DNA from: a virus
Taxonomy: Duplodnaviria > Heunggongvirae > Uroviricota > Caudoviricetes
Direction: 5' to 3' (one strand)
DNA length: 64,000 nt
IMG/VR virus record: IMGVR_UViG_3300025693_000001
Part shown: piece after piece, positions 6,245-60,218 of the stretch
How positions within the stretch are numbered: the stretch's first letter is position 1
Layout: each line of letters opens with the position of its first letter
The notes under the pieces: model-generated
The model's database searches: none
What the model saw: the letters and a program-made list of their open reading frames with translations, nothing else
What the model was told of the DNA's origin: nothing
Program-made: the position numbers and the translations under genes

Positions 6245-6274
6245 ATTATATACTGTTGTTTTGTTGTTTGTCAA
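6245..6274 (-). promoter_or_regulatory. Consensus sigma70 (early-type) promoter reading toward the tRNA array
   Basis: On the minus strand: TTGACA, an 18-nt spacer, then TATAAT (forward tgtcaa at 6269-6274, attata at 6245-6250). Confidence 0.5.
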
Positions 6275-24765: not shown

Positions 24766-24776
24766 ATTGTTCCCTC

Positions 24777-24975: not shown

Positions 24976-24990
24976 AAAATTGTTATTTTG

Positions 24991-26249: not shown

Positions 26250-26317
26250 TGGAGGTACGGAGAGTTGAACTCCGCCCGGTTGGTTGCAAACCATCCAGTC
26301 TAACCGTATACACCCCC
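26250..26317 (-). tRNA. Short tRNA-like gene (68 nt; anticodon possibly TGC)
   Basis: T-arm CGGAG-TTCAACT-CTCCG and acceptor GGGGGTG/TACCTCC, but a truncated D-arm and a mismatch in the anticodon stem. It lies inside ORF 26227-26427, which is therefore probably spurious. Confidence 0.4.
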
Positions 26318-26655
26318 AGTTGTTGAAATTGTGCTACATATAAATCTTTAAATCTTTTTACATTGCGTTCTCTATCGGTTGGCTTCATCTCGTCAAGCCA
26401 CTCATCCAAGTCCAGCATTGCACACATTCAGAATATCCCATCCTTCGTTGTCACTTCGGTTTTGTCAGCTCGTAAATGAGAGACAAATTCCTCAAGCAGG
26501 TCAGCTAATTCTTCTTCCGAATTTGACATTCTTGCAGAAAATTCACAGCTACATTTGTTATCACCTTCACCGTATGTTATACAGTATCTGGTTTGATTCT
26601 CGATGCCCATGATCTTCGCTAATTCCCCTAATGTATCCATTGCTTTTTCCTTATT

Positions 26656-26730
26656 TGGCTCCCACTCGAGGAATCGAACCTCGCTAAATCTCCTTAACAG
26701 GGAGGTGCCACACCTTGCGGCCCAGTGGGA
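26656..26730 (-). tRNA. tRNA-Asn (anticodon GTT), CCA encoded
   Basis: Perfect acceptor TCCCACT/AGTGGGA; D-stem GCCG/TGGC; anticodon loop CTGTTAA; T-arm CGAGG-TTCGATT-CCTCG. Confidence 0.65.
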
Positions 26731-27200
26731 ATAATCTATTCTCGATGTAGTTCAGCTAAGATTGTTAATCGTTGTTCAGCTAAGTCACCGTGTTCTATTT
26801 TCGTTGTTGCTTCTTGTCCAGTACCTGGATATTTTATTTTAATCAAAATGGCAGCATCTTCACGCCACAATTTTATAATGGTTGGCTTCGGGTCCAACAC
26901 ATCCCATTGGTTAACAATAAACGCCTCATACGAGTTGTATGAGAAGTCCGGAACTGGTAACGTATTATCAAACATTTCTTCTATGGAGTCAACATCAAAC
27001 TTGATAATCAGCTTGCCATTCTTACGAATCTCAACATCGTTATCCGTCTGGATTATCTCAACACCATCCCTTTTCATCCCAACCAATCCATATATGGCGT
27101 TGGTAAGTTCTTTGAAATTGTTGATACCCAGGAATCCTAGGAATCCTATTACAGCTTGCGAAATTGTTAATGTACCTATCATTATTATCCTTTTTGTTTG

Positions 27201-27272
27201 TAGCAGATTTGGGATTCGAACCCAAAACTTCCCACTTATCAGGTGAGCACTCTACCAATTGAGTTAATCCGC
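27201..27272 (-). tRNA. tRNA-Ile (anticodon GAT), no encoded CCA
   Basis: D-stem ACTC/GAGT with loop AATTGGTA; anticodon stem CTCAC/GTGGG with loop CTGATAA; T-arm TTGGG-TTCGAAT-CCCAA. Confidence 0.65.
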
Positions 27273-27959
27273 TATTATTAAAATTAGGTGGAAGAAACTA
27301 ACTTCCACAGTTGTGATGACCACTCGATTTCTGATGTCCCTGATACATACCCAAAGTCGATTGGACTGCCAGCACTCGTGTGCGTTTTTGTAGCTTCATC
27401 TTTCTTTGCTTGCAATTTCTTTCTAGTTTTAGCTTGTATGTTGATGGTGCGTGAAGTCTCGCTCCACTCACCACCACTATACCCACCTCTAGTTATCACA
27501 CCATATGTCATATACATTATTGTCGCACCATTGTTAGTGCTGAGATTTGGGAAAAATCAGGGATTAAGTTACCATTATAAATCAATCTCCAGGTTCCATC
27601 ATCAAGTTCATCCAAATGTATCATGTTCTTTTGTGTTTTTACCGCAGTTGCTTTTGATAGCTCCAACACAATATCTGTTCCAGTTAGTTCAATCGACCGT
27701 TTGTCTTTCATTATATTACCTTTACGAACGTGCCATCTTTAACAGCTTTGCGGATGTATCTCATCAACAGTATTGCCTTCTCTTCGTGGTGAAGGGTAGC
27801 ATCCTGTACATCATCCAATGGAACCGGAAATGAATACTCAATGTTTTCACCTGGAACCAATACACTATAATACACTACTTGGTGTCTATAGTATAGCATG
27901 TTAGCTACATTATTTTTTACAATATCTTTAATACTAAAAGTCATGTTACTTCCTTATTG

Positions 27960-28036
27960 TGGAGCTCCAGTACGGAATCGAACCGTATTCCCAACTTTAC
28001 AAGAGTTGACATCATCCAGATAAATGCTTCAAGAGC
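27960..28036 (-). tRNA. tRNA-Thr (anticodon TGT), CCA encoded
   Basis: Anticodon stem CAACT/AGTTG (perfect) with loop CTTGTAA; T-arm TACGG-TTCGATT-CCGTA; one mismatch in the acceptor stem. Confidence 0.6.
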
Positions 28037-28448
28037 TTATTGTTATTAAATTGTTGTGTATCTTTCTGTGGCAATTAGCACACACGATAACACACTTTTG
28101 TATTTCTTCCAGTAACACCCCCCATCCACATTTCGTGGCAGCGCTGCTAATGTTGAATTTTTTTTGTGTCGGATCTAAGTGGTGGAAATCTAAGCAACAC
28201 AATTCATCTTCACCACAACACACACACCCTGATTGCATCTTCAACGACGTTATGTATGCCTGGCGTTGTTTTGCATACGAATATCGCATGTTGTGATATT
28301 TCTTTGGGTTTTTAGCCCTGGATCCTTTGGTGCTTACATCAGCACACGATTTACAACTAGATTGGTACCCATCCTTCATTCTAACAGCTTTGTAGAATTC
28401 AGTTAACGGTTTATCACTATCACACTTAGTACATTTTTTCATGCCCAT
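28029..28448 (-). CDS. HNH endonuclease
   Basis: CTKCDSDKPLTEF...CKSC...LDFHHLDPTQK...CANCHRKIHN. The ORF track extends to 28487; the likely start is one of the internal ATGs (MGMKKC). Embedded in the second tRNA array. Confidence 0.6.
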   Translation of the reverse strand: MGMKKCTKCDSDKPLTEFYKAVRMKDGYQSSCKSCADVSTKGSRAKNPKKYHNMRYSYAKQRQAYITSLKMQSGCVCCGEDELCCLDFHHLDPTQKKFNISSAATKCGWGVLLEEIQKCVIVCANCHRKIHNNLITISS

Positions 28449-28491
28449 ATTTACGAGTCGAACCATCACCCACAAATACAAATCCATTGTG

Positions 28492-28564
28492 AGCCTTAGA
28501 CTGGAGTCGAACCAGCAACATCTAAATTACGAAATTAGAGCTCTACCATTGGAGCTACTAAGGC
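28492..28564 (-). tRNA. tRNA (anticodon read as CGT; identity uncertain), no encoded CCA
   Basis: Perfect acceptor GCCTTAG/CTAAGGC, D-stem GCTC/GAGC, T-arm GCTGG-TTCGACT-CCAGT; anticodon stem CTAAT/TTTAG with a 31-39 mismatch. Confidence 0.55.
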
Positions 28565-29000
28565 TTATTATCACACCACATATACCAACCGTCATTATCA
28601 AAATGTAGGTTAGGATGTAGTGAGCTTAAAGGTTCCTTTTTCATAACGATTATGGAACCACATTCCGCAACACCATGTTCGATTACTCGTCTGTGTTGCT
28701 TGTTTATTTTTGAAATTATCCGTATTTTCTTTTTCATATATCCGTATATAGTGAAAACCGTTTCCGACTTTGATTAACGAGTGTTTGGCACGGTAAAACA
28801 CCTTTCAGACTTCACTCGAGTACTTGCGATGCCACAGGCGTACTAACCTGCCTTATAATCCTTACTATAAAAGGTTGCGTCTATCTTCCGCACAAGGTTG
28901 CGGTGGGAATGTTCGTAGTAGCTTAGGCTACGATCTAGGCTCCTTTAAGTTGACCGCGTGTTACACATCATCAACCCATCCTCGTGCATGTTGTTCTTAT

Positions 29001-29077
29001 TGGTGGAGCTGGGGGGATTCGAACCCCCGACCCTCTACTTGCAAGGCAGATGCTCGTTCCAGCTGAGCTACAACCCC
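29001..29077 (-). tRNA. tRNA-Ala (anticodon TGC), CCA encoded
   Basis: 5' GGGGTTGTAGCTCAGCTGG..., D-stem GCTC/GAGC; anticodon stem TCTGC/GTAGA with loop CTTGCAA; T-arm GGGGG-TTCGAAT-CCCCC. Confidence 0.7.
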
Positions 29078-32955: not shown

Positions 32956-34050
32956 TCATAATAGGTCAGCAATAACTGCGATGCGAAGATTATCGATTGC
33001 TACACCAATTTGCTTACCTTCCAACGTATGATTGGCCGGTAGCGAACGAAACGATATAAATCTGATGAGGTTGTGTCCTTGTATAACGCGATCGTATATC
33101 AACGCCCCTGATGGATTCACTACACTAATGGCGGTTGAAATATCGTAGAGCAATTCAGAAGTTTTTATTGTTTTTAAAAATCCCAATACAGCCTCTGGTG
33201 TTACATCGTTGCTCACCAATTGCATAGCATGTTGAAATGCTAGCACATCTCTGATTACTGATGATGGTGCTCGTAGCTTTGTTAATGCGTCAGAAGCATC
33301 CAGCATCGGTCCAAATAATATCATCATTCGGATGGCGGTGCTGCAATTTCTGAGTGTTGCCGATCTAAACGATTTTCCATTTGCTACCAGAGTTTTTGTT
33401 AGCCCTGGTATGATAACATTCAATGCTCCACATCGATGGAGTATCCAAAAAAACTCCATTGCATTTGGTAGCTCGATTGCTTTAGCTGTTTCAGCCCACA
33501 CACGTTCGGGTACCAAATGATCCACTTCACCGTTTGTGGTCATTGTTGTCATCAATTGCATTGTTTGTCTGGTTACATTGAACCCATACTTAGCGTTGAA
33601 TCTAGCTATTCGCAACAATCGTACTGGATCATCCGCGAAATGCTCGGATGTGTGTTTTAGTGTTTTGTTAACAAGATCTTGCAACCCACCACATGGATCG
33701 ATCACTTTGGTAACATCATGTGTTGTTTTGAACTGATCCCAATCAGATAGCAATACTGCCATTGAGTTAATAGTTAGGTCACGGCGTAGTAGATCTTCGG
33801 CTAAGGTAACGGTGGGATTGAAGTTCGTTTCGAACCCATTGTAACCGTTACCGTTTTTCCGCTCGGTTCTAGCTAATGCGTATTCATCGCCATTGGGGCA
33901 TAAGAATACGGGAAAGTCCGCTCCAACTTGCTTGTAGCCTAACGACTCCATCTCTTCGGGCGTTGAACCGACAACAACATAATCGATATCGTTTACTGGT
34001 TGGTTTAGTAAGGTGTCTCTAACGGCACCACCAACTACATATATTAACAT
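32956..34050 (-). CDS. cca: tRNA nucleotidyltransferase (CCA-adding enzyme, class II)
   Basis: N-terminal MLIYVVGGAVRDTLLNQPVNDIDYVVVG (GGxVRD...DxD head-domain signature); 364 aa. Confidence 0.85.
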   Translation of the reverse strand: MLIYVVGGAVRDTLLNQPVNDIDYVVVGSTPEEMESLGYKQVGADFPVFLCPNGDEYALARTERKNGNGYNGFETNFNPTVTLAEDLLRRDLTINSMAVLLSDWDQFKTTHDVTKVIDPCGGLQDLVNKTLKHTSEHFADDPVRLLRIARFNAKYGFNVTRQTMQLMTTMTTNGEVDHLVPERVWAETAKAIELPNAMEFFWILHRCGALNVIIPGLTKTLVANGKSFRSATLRNCSTAIRMMILFGPMLDASDALTKLRAPSSVIRDVLAFQHAMQLVSNDVTPEAVLGFLKTIKTSELLYDISTAISVVNPSGALIYDRVIQGHNLIRFISFRSLPANHTLEGKQIGVAIDNLRIAVIADLL

Positions 34051-35723: not shown

Positions 35724-36167
35724 TTAGTCCCATAAATGTATATTTGTTGTTACTGTATCGAATACACCATCGAGCATTTGAATAATAGGAAACACTTCTG
35801 TATCCCAATCCAAACCACCACGATCTGATCCGATTTTCGGCAATTGTACGTCAATACCATATTGTTCAGCAAACTCATAAACACTCATAAGTGCTGTTCT
35901 GATTGCACTGGGTGACGCATATTTCTTTTGATCTGTACCACACTCATCTTGAGTATAACAATTGGCAACATATAATAGATCACCAACTTCAATGGTATCC
36001 ACCATTCCTAAAGTTGATTTACTGTCCATATATACTTCGTATATGATGGGCCATTTGTTTTTAATTGCTAATGCAACACCTGATCCCATTTTTTTCTGAC
36101 AGTTTACACCGTGCGCTACGATTCCAGTTGTTGCAGTTGTGATATCTTTATGTATCTCGTTAATCAT
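35724..36167 (-). CDS. Macro-domain protein (ADP-ribose binding/processing)
   Basis: HKDITTATTGIVAHGVNCQKKMGSGVALAI resembles the macro-domain D-I-T...VNAAN...GGGV..AI pattern; 147 aa. Confidence 0.5.
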   Translation of the reverse strand: MINEIHKDITTATTGIVAHGVNCQKKMGSGVALAIKNKWPIIYEVYMDSKSTLGMVDTIEVGDLLYVANCYTQDECGTDQKKYASPSAIRTALMSVYEFAEQYGIDVQLPKIGSDRGGLDWDTEVFPIIQMLDGVFDTVTTNIHLWD

Positions 36168-36958
36168 TGTTGGTTACCTTGTAATTTAAAATTTATACCA
36201 TATAAACATTTACATTCGGCCGGTGGACAGCAGTCTGTATCTTCGCACATGCCACACATCGGACATTTGCCGATTACTTTGTGGTTGTTTAGTAGTGCTT
36301 GTTCTTTCGTAAAACACGTTTGTTTGCGAGCTCCACTCAACACTGGGTGTGAAAATAAACCCAATCCTGCAAACTCCCATCCATGGCTCAGTAATAACTC
36401 ATCATCTTGATCTTTTACAACACGGTTGGTGCTTGATATCCGAGAGTCTAAGAACGATACCTCATCTTGTGTGTGATTTTTCATTGTGGCTCCATCAAGC
36501 TTGGTATTGATTTTTCTGTCTTTGTTGGTGAGTGAACCATACCTTGGAATGCGATAATACGCTCCCCTACAGAGAACACTGACAACGCACCGTTGCATTG
36601 CCAACCTTGCTGAATCATCGCTTCACACACATCAGCCACATACGAAGGCGTACCTTCAATTATTTTATAATGTTCACTCATAGGTACAGTTGAGGCTCTC
36701 TGCCTTTTAAATCGTTTAGTGTGATCAATGGTAAGCTCATAAAAATATGATACAATGGATTTGATGTGGTGATACTTCCAGCATCATGTTCAAATCCACA
36801 TTCTTTGATTTGGTTCGTTTGTAAATCAACAACCAACAACGATTGTTCAACCATTCTAGCGATACGTGATTCGTTTGATATTGACGTTAAATCGTCGTGT
36901 GATAGTGCTACGCGATACATTCTGTTCTCAAATATAAAGGCATACATTAACAGTTCAT

Positions 36959-37405
36959 TCACCCCATTTTCTCCTGTATTATCTGTTTGATGATAGGTCC
37001 AGCGATTTGTCCATCCACTTGATCCGGAAAGGCTTTGTTTAACGCACCCATCGTTCTACCCATCAACTTCATGGAGATTTCCGATGATGATAAACTAGAT
37101 AACAATCCCGACGCGAATTCAGTAATCACTTCTTCTGATATTGTAGCTGGAATATATTGCTCGTACAACGCAACTTCATTTATTTCAGCATCAGTCAGCG
37201 GACGATATGTTTGATTGTCTCGAACGCCCTTAATGAATTTCTTGACAACCTTCATAACTTCATCGTCAGTTGACTCACGATTACCATCATTCTTACCTAA
37301 GATGGCAGCTTCGCCGTACAGTGTTGTTAATGTTGTTGCGGCAGCTTTATTTCGGTCCTTACGGAATTGCAATCGATCTGCAGCTATTTGTGATAATAAT
37401 GACAT
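36959..37405 (-). CDS. yqeY: GatB/YqeY-domain protein
   Basis: C-terminal MGRTMGALNKAFPDQVDGQIAGPIIKQIIQEKMG against YqeY MGKVMGAL...GRADGKLVNQIVKEKL; the N-terminal half is also collinear. Confidence 0.75.
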   Translation of the reverse strand: MSLLSQIAADRLQFRKDRNKAAATTLTTLYGEAAILGKNDGNRESTDDEVMKVVKKFIKGVRDNQTYRPLTDAEINEVALYEQYIPATISEEVITEFASGLLSSLSSSEISMKLMGRTMGALNKAFPDQVDGQIAGPIIKQIIQEKMG

Positions 37406-37415
37406 ATTGTTGTTC

Positions 37416-37868
37416 CTATTTGTGTGATTTTAGATTGCGCAATGTTATTGTCGCATCAGTATCAAGTGTGTTTTCGTCATGGACGCTTTTTTTTGGCTTT
37501 TGCTCTGGTTGTATCTCTCGCTTGGGAAACATTTCTCTCCACCGTTTTTTGATTCGTGAGTTCGCTATGGCTACGTCATCATGCCATTCAAAATCAAAAA
37601 ATATCACCAAAGATGTGACTAATCCAATTACCAATCCTATCATGGCAATTATGATTTCGGGTTGTGTAAACCCTGATATCACTGTAAGCCTGTCGATATC
37701 CTTCGGGTTGTGTGGCACACTAACAACCAAACTGATAAATTGCCATCCAAAACTAATCCAGTACCCTATCACCGGAAAATGTCTACATTCGTTGTGATTT
37801 GACAATGCTACTATTGTGAACGTAATAGTAGTGAGAAAGATCATACATATAAAAAAAGTTAATATCAT
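37416..37868 (-). CDS. Membrane protein (150 aa, 3-4 TM)
   Basis: Hydrophobic helices; stop overlaps the NAMPT start region. Confidence 0.4.
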   Translation of the reverse strand: MILTFFICMIFLTTITFTIVALSNHNECRHFPVIGYWISFGWQFISLVVSVPHNPKDIDRLTVISGFTQPEIIIAMIGLVIGLVTSLVIFFDFEWHDDVAIANSRIKKRWREMFPKREIQPEQKPKKSVHDENTLDTDATITLRNLKSHK

Positions 37869-39289
37869 AATGTGTTAGTTGTGTTGAATCTAGTAGTACG
37901 AACTTCTTCCAATGTTGTAGTTCGCAATATTTTACCATTTAGGTACACAGGAGTGAGCATTTGTTCATCCATTGTTTTTGCCCCAATACAATCTGTTGTA
38001 AATTTACCTGCATCCGAACGGTATAACATTAATTGTCCACGTTTCGAGCGTTTACCGGTATCGGTAATCGGATCTTTGAATACATCGACCCACTCACCAT
38101 TGATAAATGCAGCACTTGCTTTATATGCCCATCTGCCAGTATCTCGATCCAGTTGTTGTAATAACGCACCACCCTGTCCAAATAATACATTTTCCGCACT
38201 GAACTTGTATCCAACCATCTTCGATAATATAGCATCAATGCTTTTGGTTGTAATGCCATCACCTTGCAACACTCGAACATGTTTTAGTACTTTATAGCCT
38301 TTGGTATTACGGATGTAACCGAATGCGGATTCAAGCAACAACATAATTTTTGTTACCACGGTTGCTGGATCACCACTATCAGGTCTGATAACTAGCCACC
38401 CATCACACTCAATAACCAATTCTTTCAGCTCATCACCCCAGATATGTTCAACTGCATTGAAAATATCGTACGAGTCGGATACCACAGAGAATGCGAAGAA
38501 CTTGTCTCCATATTGCTTCAACATATTGCGATATGCTTCTGTCTCCCGTCCCTTGCCCCATGTAGTAATTGAACTGTGTTCGGATGCTGGTACAGATTTT
38601 CCTGACATCTCATGCGAATATTGTCTATTTGCGTGAACTATACCTGGTACATTATCAGATCCTTTGAAATTTACCAAGTGTGCAGCTCCACCAATCATGG
38701 CACTTTCCAGTGAACTAACACCACGCGATCCGAAGTCATGCAACATAAAATCGATAGCATCTTCCTGTTCTTGTCCGGTTAAGTCGGATGTTGATTTCAT
38801 GTAACTCGTAATTACTTTTCTGGTGGTCCAGCTGTTGGTTGCTACTGTAGTTGGATACCACACACCACGTAATATCGATGGTTCGACGTGTGATGGTAAC
38901 CAAAAGCATTTCGGATCAGTATTAACGATAGTAACCAGTGCATTGCTTACCGGTACAACAGTACCTTCCGCCACCGACTTGATTTTTAACGGTAAGTAAC
39001 CGTTGTGCTCTTTTAATATGTGTTGCCATCCTTCTTTGTTGAATGGTTCACCATGAGCAGGCCAGAACAATTCCGCTTCGTCAATCATTTCTTGTGTGAT
39101 TGGTTTGCTCATGTATTCTTGTAAGAACATCTGCAATCCGAAGAATACCGTTTCATCGTATACCCCACCACGCGATTCAATATAGCAGTGAACATACTCA
39201 ATACCAGGGGGATACTGCAACCAATGGCTCGCTTTATATGAATCTGTGTTTAGTAAAATGTTAAAAACTGCGTGTTGTAAAAAGTTCAT
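37865..39289 (-). CDS. nadV: Nicotinamide phosphoribosyltransferase (NAMPT)
   Basis: Collinear with NAMPT across its whole length: FNILLNTDSYKASHWLQYPP, GWQHILKEHNGYLPLKIKSVAEGTVVP, LHDFGSRGVSS, AAHLVNFKGSDNVPG, IRPDSGDP, VLQGDGI, KRSKRGQL. Confidence 0.95.
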   Translation of the reverse strand: MNFLQHAVFNILLNTDSYKASHWLQYPPGIEYVHCYIESRGGVYDETVFFGLQMFLQEYMSKPITQEMIDEAELFWPAHGEPFNKEGWQHILKEHNGYLPLKIKSVAEGTVVPVSNALVTIVNTDPKCFWLPSHVEPSILRGVWYPTTVATNSWTTRKVITSYMKSTSDLTGQEQEDAIDFMLHDFGSRGVSSLESAMIGGAAHLVNFKGSDNVPGIVHANRQYSHEMSGKSVPASEHSSITTWGKGRETEAYRNMLKQYGDKFFAFSVVSDSYDIFNAVEHIWGDELKELVIECDGWLVIRPDSGDPATVVTKIMLLLESAFGYIRNTKGYKVLKHVRVLQGDGITTKSIDAILSKMVGYKFSAENVLFGQGGALLQQLDRDTGRWAYKASAAFINGEWVDVFKDPITDTGKRSKRGQLMLYRSDAGKFTTDCIGAKTMDEQMLTPVYLNGKILRTTTLEEVRTTRFNTTNTL

Positions 39290-39313
39290 TATAGAAATCC
39301 TCTATGTTTGCGT

Positions 39314-39336
39314 GGGATATCGTCTATCGATATCCC
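39314..39336. other. Perfect 9-bp hairpin GGGATATCG-TCTAT-CGATATCCC between HNH and nadV
   Basis: Inverted repeat seen directly; no adjacent T-run. Confidence 0.5.
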
Positions 39337-39394
39337 TTGTGCGTTAAAAATAAAAAGCATCACCTGTAACTGCAATGCTCGACAACTGGTTTTG

Positions 39395-40009
39395 TTAGTC
39401 ACCAATGAAAGCATTGACGATGTTGGTTGAGTTTAGTGCCGTTGTTACTATATCCAATATATCTTCCGCAGTATTACCCTCTTGTTTCAATTGCCAAATA
39501 GCAACTTGTATGTGTTCGGTTGGTGTTCCGTTGTTTTTTATCCGATTGGCTCGATTCGATATAATGTTAATATTATCCATTGTATATCCGTTTTCGGGTA
39601 TGAGTCTATCAGTGGACGGAGAATTATCCGTCATTACTCCTTCGATTTTATCATATACTATCGGTATATGAAGTACCGGACATAGATGCACTGTTCCATA
39701 TATTGTTCTAAATTCTTCTTTTGTCAACAAAAACAAAACATTCTTTTTTTTTGCCCGTTGTTTAATTTCATTGTATATTTCACGGGATCTATTAAACACC
39801 CTATTGTGGGTAACACGAATATCACGAGCAACCTTACAACAAATTGGACAGCTATTGTCTTTTGTGTAAAATAATACTTTTCCGTGTTTTTTACAGATGT
39901 GGCGATAATATGTGGCATTGCGTTGTTTTGCTTCCACTAACGTTTCAGCTACATCGTCTGTCGTTTGATATAATATATCCCACCGTTGTTTAAAGTTTAT
40001 CATTTCCAT
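39395..40009 (-). CDS. HNH homing endonuclease inserted between nadM and nadV
   Basis: CKKHG...CPIC zinc finger, then ...IPENGYTMDNINIISNRANRIKNNG (HNH_3-type motif). Confidence 0.6.
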   Translation of the reverse strand: MEMINFKQRWDILYQTTDDVAETLVEAKQRNATYYRHICKKHGKVLFYTKDNSCPICCKVARDIRVTHNRVFNRSREIYNEIKQRAKKKNVLFLLTKEEFRTIYGTVHLCPVLHIPIVYDKIEGVMTDNSPSTDRLIPENGYTMDNINIISNRANRIKNNGTPTEHIQVAIWQLKQEGNTAEDILDIVTTALNSTNIVNAFIGD

Positions 40010-40018
40010 GTGTGGTCT

Positions 40019-40046
40019 CCTGGAAGAGATAATGCTCTCTTCCAGG
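40019..40046. other. Perfect 11-bp hairpin CCTGGAAGAGA-TAATGC-TCTCTTCCAGG between nadM and HNH
   Basis: Inverted repeat seen directly; lies 8 nt after the nadM stop. Confidence 0.5.
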
Positions 40047-40053
40047 TTATTTA

Positions 40054-41091
40054 TTACAACCGTCCCAACATATCAAAAATAATATCGTAGTGATCTTCAA
40101 ACAATTGATCGCGCATTTCTTTAATTGTGGTAATCGGAATCCATTGTGCTTTTTCAGCATCATCGCTTCCTTTCACTTTTGGAAGTCCACCTGGTGGTAA
40201 TTCGATACCGTAAGCATGTGTTATAGTTCTACCCCGTAAACTTCGGGCAGGGTGATCGTACACCTCTTGTATTTTGATATTCCCCCGTAATATAGGATCG
40301 GGCACCTTAATTTTAGTCTCTTCTCTTAATTCCCGTAACATAGCATCAATGAGAGTCTCGTTTGGATTTACAAACCCCCCGACAATAGCCCACAATCCTT
40401 TTCCTGGAGCCGATCGCCGTTTTACCAATAACACGTGTCCTGATTGCACCACTACAGCATCAACTGTCACGAAGATTGGTTCATATGGAGCTACAGCCCA
40501 AGCGGATTTATATTTCTGTATAAATTCATATTCATATTTCAGTTGTTCGAAGATAGGTTTTAGCTTCCATGCCAACAAGTATTCGTGAATAGCTTTTGGT
40601 AATGTTGGCATAACTTGTTTGCTGAAAAAGTCTGTTGAGTGTTCAAACAAAGCGACACGGATGTCAGTTGCGTGCAAGTCGTTGATATTAGGAACCTCAA
40701 CATGCTTCCATTGAGGAAACATTTTTAAGTAGAATGATGTGTCATCTTTAGTGTGACCGATCATTCCGATGTGGCTTCCTTCGGTGCTTAACGTTTCGAC
40801 CATTTTTTGGACTTGTGTAACCCAACGTTGATTGTTGTAAGCATCATCCGCAATGGGTGCAAATTGTACTCTGAGTTTTTCGCTATGAGATAGCGAGTTG
40901 CTGATCATTTCCGCACGTTCTTGCCATGACCAAGGATTTTTGATTGTCTTTGGTTGAAATGACGATCCGATTAGTATTATAACATTTTTGGATTGTTGTA
41001 ACGCAATTTTGATTGTTTCGATGTGTGCCAAGTGAGATGGCTGAAATCTACCAATGTACACGAGGTAGTCGTATTGTTCTTCTGTATTCAT
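40054..41091 (-). CDS. nadM: Bifunctional NMN adenylyltransferase / Nudix hydrolase (NadM-like)
   Basis: N-terminal YLVYIGRFQPSHLAHIE ((H/T)xGH-type nucleotidyltransferase motif); C-terminal Nudix box GGFVNPNETLIDAMLRELREETKI. Confidence 0.9.
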   Translation of the reverse strand: MNTEEQYDYLVYIGRFQPSHLAHIETIKIALQQSKNVIILIGSSFQPKTIKNPWSWQERAEMISNSLSHSEKLRVQFAPIADDAYNNQRWVTQVQKMVETLSTEGSHIGMIGHTKDDTSFYLKMFPQWKHVEVPNINDLHATDIRVALFEHSTDFFSKQVMPTLPKAIHEYLLAWKLKPIFEQLKYEYEFIQKYKSAWAVAPYEPIFVTVDAVVVQSGHVLLVKRRSAPGKGLWAIVGGFVNPNETLIDAMLRELREETKIKVPDPILRGNIKIQEVYDHPARSLRGRTITHAYGIELPPGGLPKVKGSDDAEKAQWIPITTIKEMRDQLFEDHYDIIFDMLGRL

Positions 41092-41144
41092 AGGAAATCC
41101 TCCTAGGTTATTGTTATGCGATGAGTCTATCTCATCGCTGTTAT

Positions 41145-41699
41145 TTATGGACAGTACAGGCCATAGCCAAATTGTACGTTAAGACCCTCATTCCAAAACC
41201 CATTAATAGGTGGTGGCGGATCAAATGCTGCAAATGCTGGATCAGCAATTGCAATGTCTTGAGCCATTATATACTCAAGATCGGGTAATGACAACTGCAC
41301 AAACCACAACCACAGGTCGATAAAGTGTCTAAATCTATCGTCTTCGTTGAAGTAGTACACATCATTACCATCATACATATAATGTCCTTTGATGAAATTA
41401 TCAACAAGAGGACAATCCAAATCAACTAATATATCATACGTTTCTTGATATGTGAATGGTTTGTCATACTCTGTTGCAATTCGATACAATTTATCCACTC
41501 GCCAGTCCCGTGCGACTTCGGTATAATCCTCGTTGTGATTGAAGGATATTCCAGTCATCTTGCATGATGCTTTGTATGCTTTTTGTATATCATCCACCGT
41601 TTTGTTGGTTCTGATACCAAAGTTGGTTGTTTGACTGTGACCATCACTGGACCAATCTCCAAGCACCAATAGCATATCGTGTTGATCTACCTTACTCAT
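41145..41699 (-). CDS. Hypothetical protein (184 aa)
   Basis: Clean ORF overlapping the next gene by 8 nt. Confidence 0.4.
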   Translation of the reverse strand: MSKVDQHDMLLVLGDWSSDGHSQTTNFGIRTNKTVDDIQKAYKASCKMTGISFNHNEDYTEVARDWRVDKLYRIATEYDKPFTYQETYDILVDLDCPLVDNFIKGHYMYDGNDVYYFNEDDRFRHFIDLWLWFVQLSLPDLEYIMAQDIAIADPAFAAFDPPPPINGFWNEGLNVQFGYGLYCP

Positions 41700-42456
41700 A
41701 CTGACCTACCGGATAACATTGTTTAGAATCTTTACAGGCATATAGCATCCCCGATGAATGTGTTACTAATTTAATTGGTTTAAAAATTATTGGTGCTTCG
41801 TCTTTTAGTGATGGGTCGCTTGTTGCTATTTGTCCATCATCACCTTTAAACAGATATATTGGTGTTTTGCTTCGTATGCGATTGCTTAGGTATTCGGTTT
41901 TAAACCGTCTACCTTTGGTGTTCACTTGTTTTAGTGTTTGGACTGCATCTTCTGATTTTGTTGAAGTTGAACTAGTGACACTGATGTTATCACCGACAAA
42001 CGAAAAGAACATAAATGCTACGAATATCCCAACAAACAAACTTTCGGTAAATATCCAAACCACCACGAAGATGACACAAGTAACCAACACAAAACCTGTG
42101 TTTACTGAAGAGCTATCATCACTATCGGTGGTTTGTTCCACCACTTCCGATATGTCAGCCTTAACGTCTGGTCGTAATTTGCTCATGTCTGCTTTCACAT
42201 CAGCTTTGATGGCATTCAATTCCCGCTTCGTGTCATCTTGGATGGTTTTTATATCTTGTGTTATAGCGATTGGTGTTTCCGGTATGACAGCATCCATGTG
42301 AATATTCGCAGCAGCCCACCCAACGAACACACCAGTTCCGATAACGTACAGTATCAATGGCATATCCAACTCCAGTAAGAAATCAAAAAACATAGTGCCA
42401 ACAATTAATGCAAAGTACAGCAGAATCATAGTTCCCATCATTTCACCCGATAACAA
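41692..42456 (-). CDS. Membrane protein with charged central segment (254 aa)
   Basis: Two N-terminal and two central TM helices; repeated KADxxK segment. Confidence 0.45.
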   Translation of the reverse strand: MLSGEMMGTMILLYFALIVGTMFFDFLLELDMPLILYVIGTGVFVGWAAANIHMDAVIPETPIAITQDIKTIQDDTKRELNAIKADVKADMSKLRPDVKADISEVVEQTTDSDDSSSVNTGFVLVTCVIFVVVWIFTESLFVGIFVAFMFFSFVGDNISVTSSTSTKSEDAVQTLKQVNTKGRRFKTEYLSNRIRSKTPIYLFKGDDGQIATSDPSLKDEAPIIFKPIKLVTHSSGMLYACKDSKQCYPVGQYE

Positions 42457-42713
42457 GTATCAACATCAATGGCATCACACGCATATAGTGTTCCATCTGA
42501 GTGTTGTTTTAGTGTAACTTCTTTGTGACTGCGTTTTTTATTTGGTAGGTACTCACGGACAATATTCTCTTTTGATTTGAATACGGGAGGATTACTAGTT
42601 GTACCTTTACGCTCTTCCATTTCCTTCACCGCAGGGATAACGATTGATGCTAATATACCGATGATTGTTACCACAATCATCATCTCAATTAATGTGAAGC
42701 CTTTTTGTTTCAT
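42438..42713 (-). CDS. Type IV pilin / pseudopilin-like protein (prepilin N-terminal methylation motif)
   Basis: MKQKGFTLIEMMIVVTIIGILASIVIPA is the classic prepilin signature: a short basic leader, G followed by FTLIE, then a hydrophobic helix. The ORF track starts earlier (42791); the ATG at 42713 is favoured. Confidence 0.65.
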   Translation of the reverse strand: MKQKGFTLIEMMIVVTIIGILASIVIPAVKEMEERKGTTSNPPVFKSKENIVREYLPNKKRSHKEVTLKQHSDGTLYACDAIDVDTCYRVK

Positions 42714-42792
42714 AATATTCTCTTTATTGTTAATAAAATTGGGATTCGTCCCATTAGAAAACTGAATTATACTCGATACGTGCACGTGCATG

Positions 42793-43047
42793 CTACGAAA
42801 ATACCATCCAGGCGAAGTATGCGTTCGTTATCACGTAAGACAAACCCACCGACATAACCAGAAATACGATAACAAATAGCACAGGCAATACACCTTGTAT
42901 GCTCAATGATGCTATTCGTTCGTATCTACCACCATACTTGCCTATGAACCCATTTCGGTAATCATTAAATAGGGTAGCCCACCAGACAACTAGGAATCCA
43001 TTAACGATTCCTAGAACCAATACCATAAGGAACAATAATGTATTCAT
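42793..43047 (-). CDS. Small two-TM membrane protein (84 aa)
   Basis: Two hydrophobic helices. Confidence 0.4.
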   Translation of the reverse strand: MNTLLFLMVLVLGIVNGFLVVWWATLFNDYRNGFIGKYGGRYERIASLSIQGVLPVLFVIVFLVMSVGLSYVITNAYFAWMVFS

Positions 43048-45023
43048 TATAACAACTGCATGAAGTCTTCAACTGTAATGATCTTTTTGCTTAGATCTCT
43101 GGCTTTCTTTAGTTTACCACTCGCACCGTTCACATCAACGGTCACAACGAGATCGGTGGTTTTGCTAACACCACTCTGTACTGTACCACCTTTCGACTCC
43201 ACAGCAGCTTGAAGTGGTTTATCACGAAAGCCGGTGAAGCATATTTTCATCCCAGCTAATTTAGCATCGGTTGGTGTTGCACTTTCAAGTGTTACCAGAT
43301 GCTTAACGATGGGGAAAAAGTCATTGAATGCGTTTATAGCGGCCATGGCGCCCGTAGCGGTGATGGTATCAAAGCCATCCAACGATTTGATCGATGATAT
43401 TGATTGGTTGGTGGTAAAGTTACCACCAACTGCTAGCTCAACCTTACGCATCTTTCGTATACCAATTCCACGTTGATTTGAGTGTGCACCTACTAGCTTG
43501 TGTAGTGTAATACCATTTAACTTTTCGTGAATGCTTTTGAATACTTTTTTCCCATTCTCACCCAGCACACCAACCAATTCAGCTTCGGTCATTGTTAGTA
43601 TCGATTCGGGTGTGTCAATTTTGCTATCAACTAATTTCGTTACATTGCCCATACCAAGAAACGCAATATCTAGTTTATCAAAGAAATCATATAACTGCTT
43701 GATTAATATGATGGAATGGTTGCTAATGTCGACTACCTTTGCATCCACACCGTCCCCTTTGTCTGTGGTAGACCAGGTCCAAACGCCGAACTGATCCATT
43801 TGATCATTGAACCACAAGTTGTATTCGTCATCAGACATTTCGTCGGTCTGTCCCAAAATCTTTGTTACATTAGGAACCACATCCCCCATACGAGAGATTG
43901 CCACTTTTGTGCCTGGTCTGATTTTGTTTTCTAGTAAGTATTTGGCGTTTAGGGCTGTAGCATGAACGATAGTAACACCGACCAGATTAACAGGTTTAAC
44001 GTGAAATCGTGGTTTTATGAATCCGTGTTTGGATAATCTCAGTTCAATCCAAGTAACTTCCGTTTCTGCGTAATTATCAGCATCTGTCGTTTTGTACTTA
44101 AATGAATATGATGGATTGAGGGCAGCAGCATTTGGACTGAGTCTCACACGCTCTAATTCGTCATCAACATCAACAACAATACCATCGATTTCATATTCAG
44201 CTTTCTCTTTTCGTTCTGTTAGGTATGCAATTAAGTCTGGATCATTCAGATCCCTACCCATCCGCGTTGCCAGAACGGGAACTTTAAAGCCGTACTCCAT
44301 TAGAGTATACAGCATTGCTGTTTTACTAAGAGTAACACCAACGATTTGGTATGATACGAATTTGAGAAATGAATACACGATATCCGGATTTGTTTTTGAA
44401 TTCATCAACCCTGCAACCATATTGCGAGCGTTTTTGTATTCTAAGCCCTGACGAGTAAACACTTTAGTTTTCAGGACATCAAACCCTTCTTTTGTTAGAA
44501 TGATTTCACCACGAATAGCCAACGATGTTGGGTGTGGTATTGATTTTGGTACAATTTTTGATAGGTGACGAGAAATATCCGCACCTTCCGTACCATCCCC
44601 ACGACTATAACCAATTTGAAACGGTTCATCGTTACCAGGATAGATTGCCATCGCACTAACACCGTCAAGTTTGTCGGTTATAACAAATCGTGATGTTGTT
44701 AATCGGTTATCAGAAACCCAAGCTTCTACATCATTCTCGAATATTTGGTTTAGACTGCCCATTTTATGTGGCAGTTTTACTTTACCACCACGGACAGCAC
44801 TTCCAACCCCAGTAAAATATACGTGGTGAGGAACGGAGAGTTGCAATTTGCGGCGTAGGATGTCGTATTGTGTGTCTGTTAGTGTTAAATCACCATCAGT
44901 ACTGTTGGCATATTCATCGTCGGCAGTCATTAGAATATCAATTAATTCCTGGGTTGAATGCTCTTCGATCAGTGTATCAATTAATTCGGTTGTGGATTTT
45001 GCTGCATCTGTGATAAAACTCAT
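43047..45023 (-). CDS. ligA: NAD+-dependent DNA ligase (LigA type)
   Basis: KxDG adenylation motif as ITDKLDGVSAMA at about residue 118 (E. coli K115); 658 aa; C-terminal BRCT-like KICFTGF...VSKTTDLVVT...SGKLKKA. Confidence 0.85.
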   Translation of the reverse strand: MSFITDAAKSTTELIDTLIEEHSTQELIDILMTADDEYANSTDGDLTLTDTQYDILRRKLQLSVPHHVYFTGVGSAVRGGKVKLPHKMGSLNQIFENDVEAWVSDNRLTTSRFVITDKLDGVSAMAIYPGNDEPFQIGYSRGDGTEGADISRHLSKIVPKSIPHPTSLAIRGEIILTKEGFDVLKTKVFTRQGLEYKNARNMVAGLMNSKTNPDIVYSFLKFVSYQIVGVTLSKTAMLYTLMEYGFKVPVLATRMGRDLNDPDLIAYLTERKEKAEYEIDGIVVDVDDELERVRLSPNAAALNPSYSFKYKTTDADNYAETEVTWIELRLSKHGFIKPRFHVKPVNLVGVTIVHATALNAKYLLENKIRPGTKVAISRMGDVVPNVTKILGQTDEMSDDEYNLWFNDQMDQFGVWTWSTTDKGDGVDAKVVDISNHSIILIKQLYDFFDKLDIAFLGMGNVTKLVDSKIDTPESILTMTEAELVGVLGENGKKVFKSIHEKLNGITLHKLVGAHSNQRGIGIRKMRKVELAVGGNFTTNQSISSIKSLDGFDTITATGAMAAINAFNDFFPIVKHLVTLESATPTDAKLAGMKICFTGFRDKPLQAAVESKGGTVQSGVSKTTDLVVTVDVNGASGKLKKARDLSKKIITVEDFMQLL

Positions 45024-45089
45024 TGGTAACCCTTATTTGTGTAATTGAGTATATTATAGGTTAAAGTGTTGTTGTTGTCAACCAACCAT

Positions 45090-59663: not shown

Positions 59664-60218
59664 TTAAAATGGTAATGGGTTGTCATTGAATTGATCTCGA
59701 ACAGCCATCCATGCGAAGCCTAACACGTTCTCACCTTCCCACTCTTCTACGGTTAGCTTTTTAGCTCGAGCTGCATATGTACCAATACCGAGAACAGTAT
59801 CATACGTACTAGCACCAACGAGGATATCTTCACCAGTTGCCATCAAAGTGTCCATAACTTCACGGTGTTGGATAGCCTTGAGCACATTTATACGTACCAA
59901 GACGTTAAATAGGTGTTCGCTCCACTGTTCTTTATCAATCCCAACGACTTTAGCTTTCATGTCAATTGGTCTGGTGATCTTCATAATAGCATCTGCTGTG
60001 GCTACATCACCAAACATCAATGCTTTTGTAACAACCATTGCTTGTTCACCACAATTGAATGTTCGTGTACCATCAGTGATAGAGTGTGGACTCCACAAAT
60101 TTAAGCAACCTAGTGGTGTGGGTTGTTTATAGAAGTCAGTAACACCCCAAAAATAACTAAAGGTTGGTTCAAATCCATTCCGTATTGCTTGGATGAGTTC
60201 TTTTTTTGTGTTCATCAT
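59664..60218 (-). CDS. NADAR-family (YbiA-like, DUF1768) protein
   Basis: ...NCGEQAMVVTKALMF..., ...DTVLGIGTY...GENVLGFAWMAVRDQF against YbiA TSEHYFQAQKF...DAYWGDGGHG...NRLGYLLMELREQL. Confidence 0.75.
   Translation of the reverse strand: MMNTKKELIQAIRNGFEPTFSYFWGVTDFYKQPTPLGCLNLWSPHSITDGTRTFNCGEQAMVVTKALMFGDVATADAIMKITRPIDMKAKVVGIDKEQWSEHLFNVLVRINVLKAIQHREVMDTLMATGEDILVGASTYDTVLGIGTYAARAKKLTVEEWEGENVLGFAWMAVRDQFNDNPLPF

Follow-up and report, generated by a model that had tools for sequence, protein, structure and literature searches.

A 9.3-kb stretch of the phage DNA examined here (the window, 64 kb at its whole length) raises the question of whether its genes for NAD+ synthesis, a macro domain, a DNA ligase of the NAD+-dependent type and the genes interleaved with them form a single functional unit. 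An earlier note on this DNA had proposed a broad NAD+/ADP-ribose module of this kind, to which a separate NADAR gene elsewhere in the window was also assigned. Because proteins of the window recur on a 324,905-bp contig, the DNA is attributed to a jumbo phage (~325 kb), for which no close DNA relative was found among 50,697 phage records; the window corresponds, in reverse complement, to a contig of a JGI metagenome. All open reading frames named in that note lie on the minus strand, and an ORF check found every one of its coordinates exact. Profile searches backed NAMPT, NadM, the macro domain, YqeY, the prepilin-like protein and LigA.

The core of the locus is formed by two enzymes of NARP2, a pathway that has been defined, and its anti-defence activity demonstrated experimentally, in published work (10.1101/2024.02.11.579819).

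40054..41091, minus strand: NadM, bifunctional NMN adenylyltransferase/Nudix protein (ADP-ribose pyrophosphatase type), second NARP2 enzyme (Pfam)
37865..39289, minus strand: NAMPT (NadV-type nicotinamide phosphoribosyltransferase), first NARP2 enzyme (Pfam NAMPT_N and NAPRTase)

NAMPT matched NAMPT_N with 107 bits and NAPRTase with 174 bits, and scored 596 bits against NCBIfam PRK09198 (curated equivalog cut-off 405). NadM matched CTP_transf_like (41 bits) and NUDIX (68 bits), scored 440 bits against NCBIfam NF003786 (curated equivalog cut-off 397), and has a readable Nudix box (GX5EX7REUXEEXGU) in its translation. By these Pfam and NCBIfam results the nicotinamide-to-NAD+ route claimed earlier is a genuine NARP2-type pair, and thus an already published phage counter-defence pathway. 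NAMPT would convert nicotinamide and PRPP to NMN, which the adenylyltransferase domain of NadM would join with ATP to give NAD+. As in the NARP2 of vibriophage KVP40 (NadV/NatV), the same two enzymes with the same domains are encoded near each other and in the same orientation in a large phage genome. The closest phage NAMPT is that of Xanthomonas jumbo phage RTH11 (55% identical), and the identity to NAMPT of the KVP40-like phage R11Z (L007) is ~45%; the NadM of this phage resembles bacterial NadM (47-51% identity) to the same degree as it does that of other phages. In a neighbourhood survey of 62 non-redundant phage NadM locus clusters, NAMPT was found within 10 kb of NadM in 54 clusters, nearly always downstream and on the same strand. 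The order NadM-NAMPT-macro is retained in the closest relative (L008) and in the next one (L011).

The pair differs from its KVP40 counterpart in being split by a homing-endonuclease-like gene and in the presence of a two-hairpin RNA leader on each of its genes, whereas the covariance model described below detects none in the locus of R11Z.

41091..41140, minus strand: NadM two-hairpin leader, GCGAUGAG-AUAGA-CUCAUCGC, a 12-nt spacer, then UAGGA-GGAUU-UCCUA into AUG
39395..40009, minus strand: HNH/endonuclease VII-like gene, 204 aa, between NadM and NAMPT (phrog_3322, E 6e-24; phrog_1035, E 3.9e-18)
39355..39380, minus strand: terminator-like hairpin with a T-run, 3' of the HNH gene and 5' of the NAMPT leader
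39291..39337, minus strand: NAMPT two-hairpin leader, GGAUAUCG-AUAGA-CGAUAUCC, a 9-nt spacer, AUAGA-GGAUU-UCUAU, then AAUG

Homologues of the HNH gene occur near NadM in 5 of the 62 clusters, and its ribosome-binding site is covered by an 11-bp hairpin (40019-40046). Since the terminator-like hairpin separates NadM and the HNH gene from NAMPT, NadM and NAMPT may not share one transcript.

In both leaders, a stem of 8 bp capped by an AUAGA loop is followed by a hairpin that holds the Shine-Dalgarno sequence inside a pentaloop. A covariance model that was built without sequences from the window had only two matches in the 64 kb, one preceding NadM (32.7 bits, E 4.7e-5) and one preceding NAMPT (35.2 bits, E 1.3e-5; the top match). 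The minimum-energy structure predicted by RNAfold for the NadM leader is exactly the two hairpins (z -4.7), and the NAMPT leader has a z of -5.2. The phage loci yielded 86 matches, all but one of them (85/86) on the coding strand, and the leader lies directly 5' of NadM or NAMPT in 96 of the 112 matches having a downstream assignment. It also precedes one phage nadA, as well as bacterial nadM and the next gene downstream in gamma- and epsilon-proteobacteria. Covariation is strong (96% of cells paired; changes on both sides in 12 of 13 pairs), and no Rfam model matches the leader, which is the one apparently new element of the locus.

The leader is shared by both NARP2 genes and by bacterial nadM loci and precedes no other gene of the window, so that NAMPT and NadM are most likely controlled together via translation or mRNA processing. 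The operators of NrtR in bacterial nadM-nadV operons (Synechocystis and others) are different: each is a 21-bp palindrome in DNA that combines conserved arms with a GT-N7-AC core, whereas in the leader the arms vary and covary, the conserved loop is asymmetric and strand specificity is strict. Like the NAD+ riboswitches of class I (nadA motif) and class II (pnuC motif), it lies in cis in the 5' leaders of NAD+ pathway genes and includes the Shine-Dalgarno sequence in its structure. Guanidine-II (mini-ykkC) RNAs consist of two small hairpins that are conserved in their loops alone and joined by a variable linker; they are an architectural analogue, although the two loops of the leader are unlike each other and not complementary. 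A protein operator and a ligand-binding element are equally possible.

The macro gene follows 1.7 kb downstream of NAMPT, outside the operon and beyond five small genes, and lacks the shared leader.

37416..37772, minus strand: 118-aa membrane protein (gene call; homologue in L008 only)
36959..37405, minus strand: YqeY/GatB-like protein (PF09424, 47 bits; phrog_1460, E 3.7e-27)
36164..36962, minus strand: three small overlapping ORFs of 94, 66 and 106 aa between YqeY and macro (gene calls)
35724..36167, minus strand: stand-alone macro domain, 147 aa (Pfam PF01661, PHROG, NCBIfam, family profile)

The Pfam score of the macro domain is barely above the cut-off (23 against 22 bits); the call is strengthened by matches to PHROG 335 (E 1.6e-29) and to the DarG macro model (E 2.9e-9; the sole NCBIfam match), and by a family profile that matches solved macro domains (E 1e-23). 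The protein is placed in the DarG/BT1257/SCO6735/Poa1p/TARG1 clade, whose members score much higher with the family profile than do macro domains of the MacroD type or of viral nsP3. The ADP-ribose-binding Asn (N22) and the GxG loop are kept; the second phosphate-binding loop is GSDRGG instead of the GxGLAGG of the family, so that the substrate may differ. Homologues are carried by 1082 phage records, and in 15 of the 62 clusters (24%) one lies within 10 kb of NadM, usually within the NadM-NAMPT operon and in 12 of these 15 at 0.7-4.9 kb downstream of NadM on the same strand. The cultured Rhizobium phage RHph_I1_18 has an overlapping NadM-NAMPT-macro operon, and the macro proteins of L008 and L011 are 68% and 48% identical to that of the window. 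NARP2 operons repeatedly, though not always, carry the macro domain as an accessory: the association that the earlier note drew holds as a non-random neighbourhood, but is not specific to this phage.

Its role could nevertheless be independent of NARP2, the clustering being a by-product of early auxiliary gene placement and the protein a de-ADP-ribosylase of macromolecules (for example one that counters DarT as PhiKZ AdfM does, or one that reverses the ADP-ribosylation of RNA or protein). The DarG match in NCBIfam and the best solved-structure matches, the macro domains of DarG from M. tuberculosis and from T. aquaticus, agree with this, DarG being a DNA de-ADP-ribosylase; removal of DarT2 marks by DarG-like macro proteins of phages is on record (PMC13309987). 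Among cultured phages, XacN1 has the closest homologue (45% identical), which is ~30 kb from the NAMPT gene of XacN1, and the homologues of FADO and Felixounavirus phages do not adjoin NAD+ genes. We nonetheless regard such a role as unlikely, as the FPTK motif with the catalytic lysine of DarG, TARG1 and AdfM is replaced by N(A/C)YTQ here and in all NARP2-linked homologues, and as the enrichment and the fixed place inside NadM-NAMPT operons would be difficult to account for if no function linked these proteins to metabolites of NAD+ or ADPR. The N(A/C)YTQ motif is common to BT1257 and SCO6735, and a C-terminal DarT-binding domain is absent.

The Poa1p match of the family profile (E 1e-16) fits another possibility, by which the macro protein, like Poa1p, would clear ADP-ribose-1''-phosphate or 1'',2''-cyclic phosphate arising from NAD+-dependent RNA 2'-phosphate removal during tRNA repair. 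The window holds 14 tRNA genes, a T4 Rnl1-type RNA ligase, a CCA-adding enzyme 1.7 kb past the macro gene and YqeY, which fits this tRNA-related set more plausibly than NAD+ metabolism; links of this sort to RNA repair are described by Iyer, Burroughs, Anantharaman and Aravind (2022). This explanation is very improbable in our estimate, since Pfam calls over ~12.2-64 kb of the window include neither KptA/Tpt1 nor a 2H phosphoesterase, and since the same macro family sits elsewhere between NadM and NAMPT and not beside RNA ligases.

Most likely, as the analogous macro phosphatase Adpp within NARP1 operons (Osterman et al. 2026, 10.64898/2026.01.28.702374) suggests, the macro protein acts on soluble ADP-ribose derivatives. 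It would convert ADPR-1''-phosphate or O-acyl-ADPR to ADPR, which the Nudix domain of NadM would then cut to AMP and ribose-5-phosphate, a PRPP precursor. The NARP1-AP system of that preprint (Adps-Adpp-Namat) likewise combines an NAD+ reconstitution pathway with a Poa1p-related macro protein, which is optional in both cases (15% of NARP1 operons, 24% of the NadM loci here). The core here, however, is the PRPP-based NARP2 and not the ADPR-based NARP1, and because ADPR is not a NARP2 substrate the macro protein cannot serve the feeding step known from NARP1-AP; moreover, the macro gene of the window stands beyond the operon. As NARP2 alone already cancels aRES defence (Osterman et al. 2026), a phosphatase is not obviously required for NAD+ synthesis.

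The remaining genes decide how far the unit extends.

45053..45081, minus strand: sigma-70 consensus promoter TTGACA-17-TATAAT, ~30 nt upstream of the LigA start, heading the leftward block
43047..45023, minus strand: divergent DNA ligase of the LigA family (NAD+-dependent type), 658 aa (adenylation, OB and BRCT domains by Pfam)
42793..43047, minus strand: 84-aa predicted membrane protein (ORF; start overlaps the LigA stop)
42438..42713 (ORF 42438-42791), minus strand: small prepilin-like protein, N-terminal methylation motif present (PF07963, N_methyl, 39 bits; PHROG pilin-like families)
41692..42441, minus strand: 249-aa membrane protein (no Pfam match)
41145..41699, minus strand: 184-aa protein, phrog_20092
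59664..60218, minus strand: NADAR-family protein, 184 aa (PF08719; TIGR02464)

That NAMPT, NadM-Nudix, macro, LigA, NADAR and some interleaved genes were selected as one module for NAD+/ADP-ribose recycling and de-ADP-ribosylation is suggested by their common strand, short or overlapping junctions and a single consensus promoter upstream. This promoter matches the consensus at 12 of 12 positions and is conserved in L008; the 64 kb contain only two such perfect matches (0.18 expected), the second preceding a tRNA cluster. The entire gene order from Lipase_3 to Band_7 (~20 kb) is also collinear with L008, but this collinearity covers all genes, clearly unrelated ones included, and therefore reflects common descent. 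Homologues of LigA, YqeY, the 184-aa protein, the membrane proteins and the prepilin-like protein were found near NadM in only one of the 62 clusters, that of L008, and L011 has no LigA in the 8.9 kb covered upstream of its NadM. Neither LigA nor the interleaved genes can accordingly be retained as conserved members of the module, and the position of LigA beside NARP2 looks like lineage-specific synteny.

LigA scored 200 bits against TIGR00575 (cut-off 444 bits) and aligns over its full length with E. coli LigA (2OWO). The KLDG, RGDG, RGE and FKY motifs and the equivalents of D50, Y53 and D54 in domain Ia are present; the four Zn-finger cysteines are missing, and Asp stands at the aligned position of the motif IV lysine. 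It would be the replicative ligase of the phage, and is probably NAD+-dependent and hence a beneficiary of NARP2.

Among the interleaved genes, the 84-aa protein has a 49% identical homologue at the equivalent position in L008 and the 249-aa protein a 28% identical one, whereas YqeY is seemingly split into two pieces there; the 106-aa ORF also stands 5' of the macro gene in L011. Family matches were found neither for the 118-aa protein (Pfam, PHROG) nor for the 84-aa protein and the 94-, 66- and 106-aa ORFs (PHROG). The C-termini of the 249-aa and the prepilin-like protein resemble each other. For the 184-aa protein, structure prediction gave a confident model in which no known fold was recognised, and a distant homologue stands in an unrelated, non-NAD context, which also speaks against a single module.

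The NADAR gene is present as reported (88 bits against TIGR02464; cut-off 73.7 bits), but is not co-localised, as it lies ~15 kb from LigA and ~19 kb from NadM; a second one follows just past the window end, so that both are ~19-25 kb from NadM. In other phages, NADAR adjoins NadM in 7 of the 62 clusters and a deoxyribosyltransferase-like gene lies near it in 7, so that these two and macro do recur beside NadM. All in all, we consider a single selected module quite improbable: of the broad proposal, the NARP2 pair and the macro link stand, whereas LigA, the interleaved genes and the co-localisation of NADAR do not.

The novelty claimed for the co-localisation is largely pre-empted by Osterman et al. 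(2026) for macro in NARP1 and by Iyer et al. (2022) for NADAR. The latter already describe NADAR-NadM/NadV neighbourhoods, an NAD+-dependent ligase in ~1/3 of jumbo phages and, as here, large genomes of the myovirus type in which Macro, NADAR, Nudix and SLOG/deoxyribohydrolase-like domains occur together; in its accessible text their survey names NADAR but not Macro as a NadM/NadV neighbour, and it mentions no RNA leader.

The 9.3-kb stretch would form the beginning of a long leftward early/auxiliary gene block in the ~325-kb jumbo phage, starting at the consensus host-type promoter that precedes LigA; its early class is one that we infer from a single promoter match. We think it reasonably probable that the locus comprises a NARP2 core with co-controlled leaders, the macro protein as an accessory, LigA by lineage synteny, and the other interleaved genes (homing-endonuclease-like, membrane proteins, prepilin-like, YqeY and 184-aa protein) as unrelated passengers. 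With this core the phage would refill the NAD+ pool drained by TIR, SIR2, SEFIR or RES defence effectors, an activity that is established for homologues and that we infer here.

Every open reading frame to which the earlier note had assigned coordinates was found there on the minus strand, and the profile searches that it had proposed supported NAMPT, NadM (NMNAT-Nudix), the macro domain, YqeY, the prepilin-type N-methylation motif and the LigA-type ligase. The features concerned are the following.

35724-36167, minus strand: stand-alone macro-domain protein
37865-39289, minus strand: NAMPT (NAMPT_N and NAPRTase in Pfam; PRK09198, 596 bits against a cut-off of 405)
39291-39337, minus strand: leader of NAMPT
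40054-41091, minus strand: NadM (CTP_transf_like and NUDIX in Pfam; equivalog NF003786, 440 bits against a cut-off of 397)
41091-41140, minus strand: leader of NadM
41145-41699, minus strand: 184-aa protein
43047-45023, minus strand: LigA-type ligase (adenylation, OB and BRCT domains in Pfam)
59664-60218, minus strand: NADAR (PF08719; TIGR02464, 88 bits against a cut-off of 73.7)

NadM and NAMPT are encoded on one strand, with NadM 765 bp upstream. The profile scores and the NMNAT partner place the predicted NAMPT in the NAMPT clade of phosphoribosyltransferases and not in the Namat clade of NARP1, and no PRPS-like Adps was present among the Pfam calls between window positions of about 12.2 kb and 64 kb. 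NAMPT of the window is at most 55% identical to any cultured-phage NAMPT. Depletion of NAD+ is among the commonest bacterial anti-phage strategies, and no phage answer to it is known to be broader than the NARP pathways. The combination of NAMPT and NMNAT has been named NARP2; it is present in about 1.1% of phages, and the genes of phage KVP40 overcome NAD+-depleting defences (10.1101/2024.02.11.579819). NARP2 also cancels the RES-based aRES defence (10.64898/2026.01.28.702374), and its constitutive expression is reportedly metabolically costly and toxic. With both of its genes predicted here, the pair is assigned to NARP2; this core of the locus is already known and adds no new pathway. NadM and NAMPT are split by an HNH/endonuclease VII-like gene (39395-40046, minus strand; phrog_3322, E 6e-24). 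An 11-bp hairpin encloses the ribosome-binding site of this gene, and on the 3' side of the gene there is a second hairpin that resembles a terminator and has a T-run. In 5 of 62 phage clusters, NadM has a homologue of the HNH-like gene nearby, a distribution suggestive of mobility of the homing type around the cassette.

The window corresponds, in reverse complement, to a JGI metagenome contig. Its proteins recur identically on a contig of 324,905 bp, and the virus is therefore a jumbo phage. When 50,697 phage records were compared with the 9.3-kb region by megablast, no close DNA relative emerged, nor did a single-protein scan of IMG/VR with NAMPT find any relative. The genes leftward of 45023 are co-directional, with short or overlapping junctions, and a perfect sigma-70 consensus promoter, conserved in a relative, lies in a divergent intergenic region, about 30 nt ahead of LigA; the 64 kb contain two such perfect matches against 0.18 expected. 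The other one (6274..6245) heads the first of two tRNA clusters (2176-6018 and 24069-29077, minus strand), which together hold 14 tRNA genes. The window also encodes a T4 Rnl1-type RNA ligase (13719-14867) and a CCA-adding enzyme (32956-34050); the tRNAs, these two enzymes and YqeY look like a gene set for tRNA supply and repair. An HD_4 protein, a nucleoside deoxyribosyltransferase-like protein, an SNase-like nuclease, Band_7 and Lipase_3 are encoded as well, and such a mixture of auxiliary genes is typical of early regions.

The neighbourhood of NadM was surveyed in the best 80 IMG/VR loci with NadM relatives, which were identified by an alignment-based NadM scan and fetched with up to 10 kb of flank per side, and in four cultured-phage neighbourhoods; all were searched with iterated profiles built from the window proteins. 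The NadM sequences were collapsed at 90% identity into 62 clusters, and genes within 10 kb of NadM were counted. The sample consists of the best NadM matches and is thus non-random, and kinship is handled by the 90% clustering only. Many flanks end with their contigs, and the neighbour counts are therefore lower bounds.

Genes within 10 kb of NadM (number of the 62 NadM clusters)
NAMPT: 54
Macro homologue: 15
Rnl1: 8
NADAR: 7
Deoxyribosyltransferase-like: 7
HNH-like: 5
LigA, YqeY and the 184-aa protein: 1 each (in L008, the closest relative of the phage, only)

The co-localisation of the macro domain with the NARP2 pair, which the earlier note had regarded as new, reflects a real link that recurs among the clusters, while the macro gene is optional and not an obligatory partner. 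Twelve of the 15 macro genes have the orientation of NadM and follow it at a distance of 0.7-4.9 kb, often placed between the two pathway genes, and Rhizobium phage RHph_I1_18 has a NadM-NAMPT-macro operon with overlapping genes. The order NadM, NAMPT, 106-aa ORF, macro is kept in L011, the next relative of the phage (NadM 61% identical). The best cultured-phage homologue of the window macro (45% identical) is encoded by phage XacN1, about 30 kb from the NAMPT of that phage, and no NAD+ reconstitution (NARP1) gene was annotated within the 3.5-4 kb flanks of the macro homologues of Bacillus phage FADO and a Felixounavirus. A nucleoside 2-deoxyribosyltransferase-like gene (PF15891; 18225-18704, minus strand) is located about 22 kb from NadM in the window; in 7 of 62 other phage clusters, a homologue of this gene separates NadM from NAMPT, frequently next to a macro gene. 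Overall, 25 of the 62 clusters (about 40%) have an accessory gene of the macro, NADAR or deoxyribosyltransferase-like type.

The remaining proposed members of the module fared less well. LigA occurs near NadM in L008 only and is absent from the 8.9 kb examined upstream of NadM in L011, so that its link to NadM appears to be specific to one lineage. The proteins encoded by L008 (a Logan assembly) are 28-78% identical to those of the window, and the two loci are collinear from Lipase_3 to Band_7; this collinearity includes clearly unrelated genes and is therefore attributed to common descent, not to selection for linkage. The interleaved genes, proposed as candidates for additional members, are best regarded as passengers, with YqeY and the 184-aa protein found near NadM in that same relative only. 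The separate NADAR gene is present as described and its family is a genuine neighbour of NadM elsewhere, but in the window it is too distant to count as co-localised. A second NADAR gene (175 aa), likewise too distant, follows beyond the window (at about 65.1-65.6 kb if its numbering is continued; 2869-3396 of locus L002), about 5 kb from the first, and the phage has two NADAR paralogues. According to Iyer et al. (2022), Macro is found in 56%, an NAD+ ligase in 32% and NadV in 33% of jumbo phages; on these base rates, a jumbo phage with all of these families would be unremarkable.

Pfam support for the macro domain is weak, at 23 bits against a cut-off of 22, and the assignment is borne out by PHROGs (E 1.6e-29) and the DarG macro model (E 2.9e-9). 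Compared with solved macro domains, the family profile gave an E-value of 1e-23; it matched Poa1p (6LFU/6LFQ) with E-values of 1e-16 to 2e-15, with DarG, BT1257 and SCO6735 scoring higher, and the DarG/BT1257/SCO6735/Poa1p/TARG1 clade scored far above the MacroD-type or viral nsP3 macro domains. By these profile comparisons, the family is placed in the former clade. The window protein consists of a single domain of 147 aa that covers positions 6-132 of the DarG model, which is 338 positions long (36.6 bits against a cut-off of 250), and the C-terminal DarT-binding domain of the DarG type is absent from it. The catalytic lysine in the FPTK motif of DarG, TARG1 and AdfM, which we take to be K80 in DarG and K84 in TARG1, is also absent; the position reads T/Q within ANCYTQ, and N(A/C)YTQ replaces FPTK in the window macro and in all NARP2-linked homologues. 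The protein is therefore not filed as a DarG or AdfM member. Residues 113-118, in the second phosphate-binding loop, read GSDRGG in the window protein and its L008 orthologue, and GxGL(A/G)GG in all other family members including that of L011; with this unusual loop, the substrate may differ.

A macro accessory in an NAD+ reconstitution operon has already been published for NARP1, where the Poa1p-like macro phosphatase Adpp is present in 15% of the operons and converts ADPR-1''P to ADPR (10.64898/2026.01.28.702374). By its profile matches to Poa1p, the window macro falls in the Poa1p-related clade, as the Poa1p-like Adpp does. Adpp is an accessory within the NAD+ operon. In the window, five small genes stand between NAMPT and the macro gene, which follows 1.7 kb downstream; homologues of the macro gene lie inside the operon in other phages. 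Because of the analogy to Adpp and the ADPR-pyrophosphatase-type Nudix domain on NadM, we propose a clean-up and recycling role, in which the macro protein would convert an ADPR derivative to ADPR, which would then yield AMP and ribose-5-phosphate and, from the latter, PRPP. The recurrence of macro domains as accessories to NARP2-type operons appears to be undescribed in the literature searched. The accessory rate of about 40% in NARP2-type loci parallels NARP1-AP (Adps-Adpp-Namat) and hints that clearing or recycling of ADPR derivatives may matter for PRPP-based reconstitution too.

The LigA-type ligase, which had been described as NAD+-consuming, has the expected domains and is a divergent member that scores below the TIGR00575 and PRK07956 cut-offs. 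It aligns over its full length to LigA of E. coli, spanning the HhH region, and has kept KxDG and the catalytic motifs. The NMN-binding residues in domain Ia of the E. coli enzyme are presumably Y22, H23, D32, Y35 and D36. Three of these five positions are kept (D50, Y53 and D54, aligned to D32, Y35 and D36), and opposite Y22 and H23 stand N40 and S41, or, if the alignment is shifted by two residues, Y38 at Y22. There are no cysteines in the segment aligned to the Cys4 zinc finger, all four being absent, and the position of the motif IV lysine is Asp. With the motifs and three domain Ia residues kept, the zinc-finger cysteines lost and Asp in motif IV, dependence on NAD+ is probable, not certain.

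Structure prediction, a further check that had been proposed for the uncharacterized neighbours, revealed no NAD+ role for the 184-aa protein: the AlphaFold2 model is confident (pLDDT 90) and had no structural neighbour in the PDB. The protein belongs to phrog_20092, and large phage contigs encode more than 200 homologues of it; G14, D15, D19, G20 and H21, in a GDWSxDGH stretch, are invariant, and the C-terminus has an NVQFGYG motif. We rejected it as an NAD+-related enzyme, given the lack of a family annotation and of a structural neighbour, and the unrelated neighbourhood of a distant homologue. The adjoining 249-aa membrane protein (41692-42441, minus strand) and the prepilin-like protein (42438-42713, minus strand) share a similar C-terminal motif, G-x-LYAC...C-Y-x-V, and, at 42% identity over 31 aa, the latter also matches the C-terminal part of the 258-aa homologue that L008 encodes. 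Between its homologues of the 249-aa and 184-aa proteins, L008 encodes an intein-split AAA ATPase (7945-10008; Hom_end_hint/Hom_end) that is absent from the window.

The leaders of NadM and NAMPT share an RNA element of two hairpins. At both genes, a perfect 8-bp hairpin with an AUAGA loop is followed by a spacer of 9 to 12 nt and a 5-bp hairpin that directly adjoins the AUG and has the Shine-Dalgarno sequence in its GGAUU pentaloop; the stem sequences of the two leaders are unrelated to each other. Both leaders fold into exactly these hairpins (z-scores of -4.7 for NadM and -5.2 for NAMPT). The same elements are present in L008 (10525-10574 and 12637-12683), with different and compensating stems. 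Among the surveyed loci, the start zones of NadM and NAMPT contain 153 AUAGA pentamers, 64 of which are flanked by at least 7 of 8 pairs, compared with 35 of 2582 pentamers elsewhere in these loci. Of 51 leaders of this kind, 47 also have the Shine-Dalgarno hairpin; among 471 control gene starts, 59 have it. The covariation in the MAFFT alignment A2 is circular, its sequences having been chosen for pairing, and was not counted as evidence.

A covariance model was seeded from 22 sequences of equal geometry, none of them from the window or L008. Applied to the whole window with filters off, it yielded exactly two matches, the leaders of NAMPT (35.2 bits, E 1.3e-5) and NadM (32.7 bits, E 4.7e-5), with E-values that are rough because of a shortened calibration; the next match scored 10 bits. 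The phage loci gave 86 matches, 85 of them on the coding strand, and 80 bacterial nadM loci gave 28, all but one just before nadM or the next gene, in gamma- and epsilon-proteobacteria. Of 112 matches with an assigned downstream ORF, a list outside which the window leaders stand, 96 directly precede NadM or NAMPT homologues, and one further match precedes a phage quinolinate synthase NadA (PF02445, E 1e-83). In the bacterial alignment, 96% of the cells pair, 12 of 13 pairs vary on both sides, and the covariation score is 0.95 compared with at most 0.16 for slid partners, while conservation is confined to G-AUAGA-C and A-GGA-NN-U. The general form is an 8-bp stem with a G-AUAGA-C loop, a spacer of 8-13 nt and a Shine-Dalgarno sequence in an A-GGANN-U pentaloop beside the AUG, and it is common to gamma- and epsilon-proteobacterial nadM loci and phage NARP2 operons. 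Xanthomonas phage LucasX, a cultured relative, has the leader as well. The motif also precedes a radical SAM protein of about 310 aa on two phage contigs, between NadM and NAMPT in L047 (5133-6124) and just upstream of NAMPT in L027 (12295-13284), and several small ORFs of 81-124 aa adjoining NadM. It is absent before the macro, NADAR and LigA genes of the window; judged by the leader, co-regulation is predicted for the two NARP2 enzymes only.

With Rfam 15, neither the window nor the bacterial locus L099 had a match at the leader positions at E <= 10, and 10 leader-carrying loci gave none at gathering score. A c-di-GMP-I riboswitch (RF01051, 57.5 bits) was found on a 135-kb phage contig (L016, 19172-19259), about 9 kb from its NARP2 genes. 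Full-text literature searches, of incomplete coverage, gave no description of the leader motif, which appears to be undescribed in the literature searched. The NrtR operator is a DNA palindrome of 21 bp whose arms are conserved and whose core is GT-N7-AC. The AUAGA element also measures 21 nt, but its core is G-AUAGA-C, its arms are unconserved and unrelated even within one genome, and its occurrence is strand-specific; on these grounds we judged an NrtR DNA operator unlikely. A kissing complex between the two loops is unlikely, since the loops are not complementary, as is an intrinsic terminator, since most copies lack a U-run. The leader could instead be a small riboswitch-like sensor of a metabolite of the NAD+ pathway, or the operator of a conserved RNA-binding protein.

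The boldest reading of these data is tentative and, taken as a whole, somewhat on the improbable side: the leader would be a regulatory RNA, hitherto undescribed, that belongs to genes for NAD+ salvage and synthesis and that phages captured with the enzymes, and, separately, the macro, NADAR and deoxyribosyltransferase-like genes would mark an extended 'NARP2 plus ADPR clean-up' type of operon. Most of the upside of the locus lies in the leader. If the reading is true, phages captured host NAD+ salvage enzymes together with their control element, and the costly, PRPP-consuming NARP2 is switched on only when NAD+ falls. A built-in control element of this kind would explain how phages afford NARP2, and would be relevant to the engineering of therapeutic phages that carry it.
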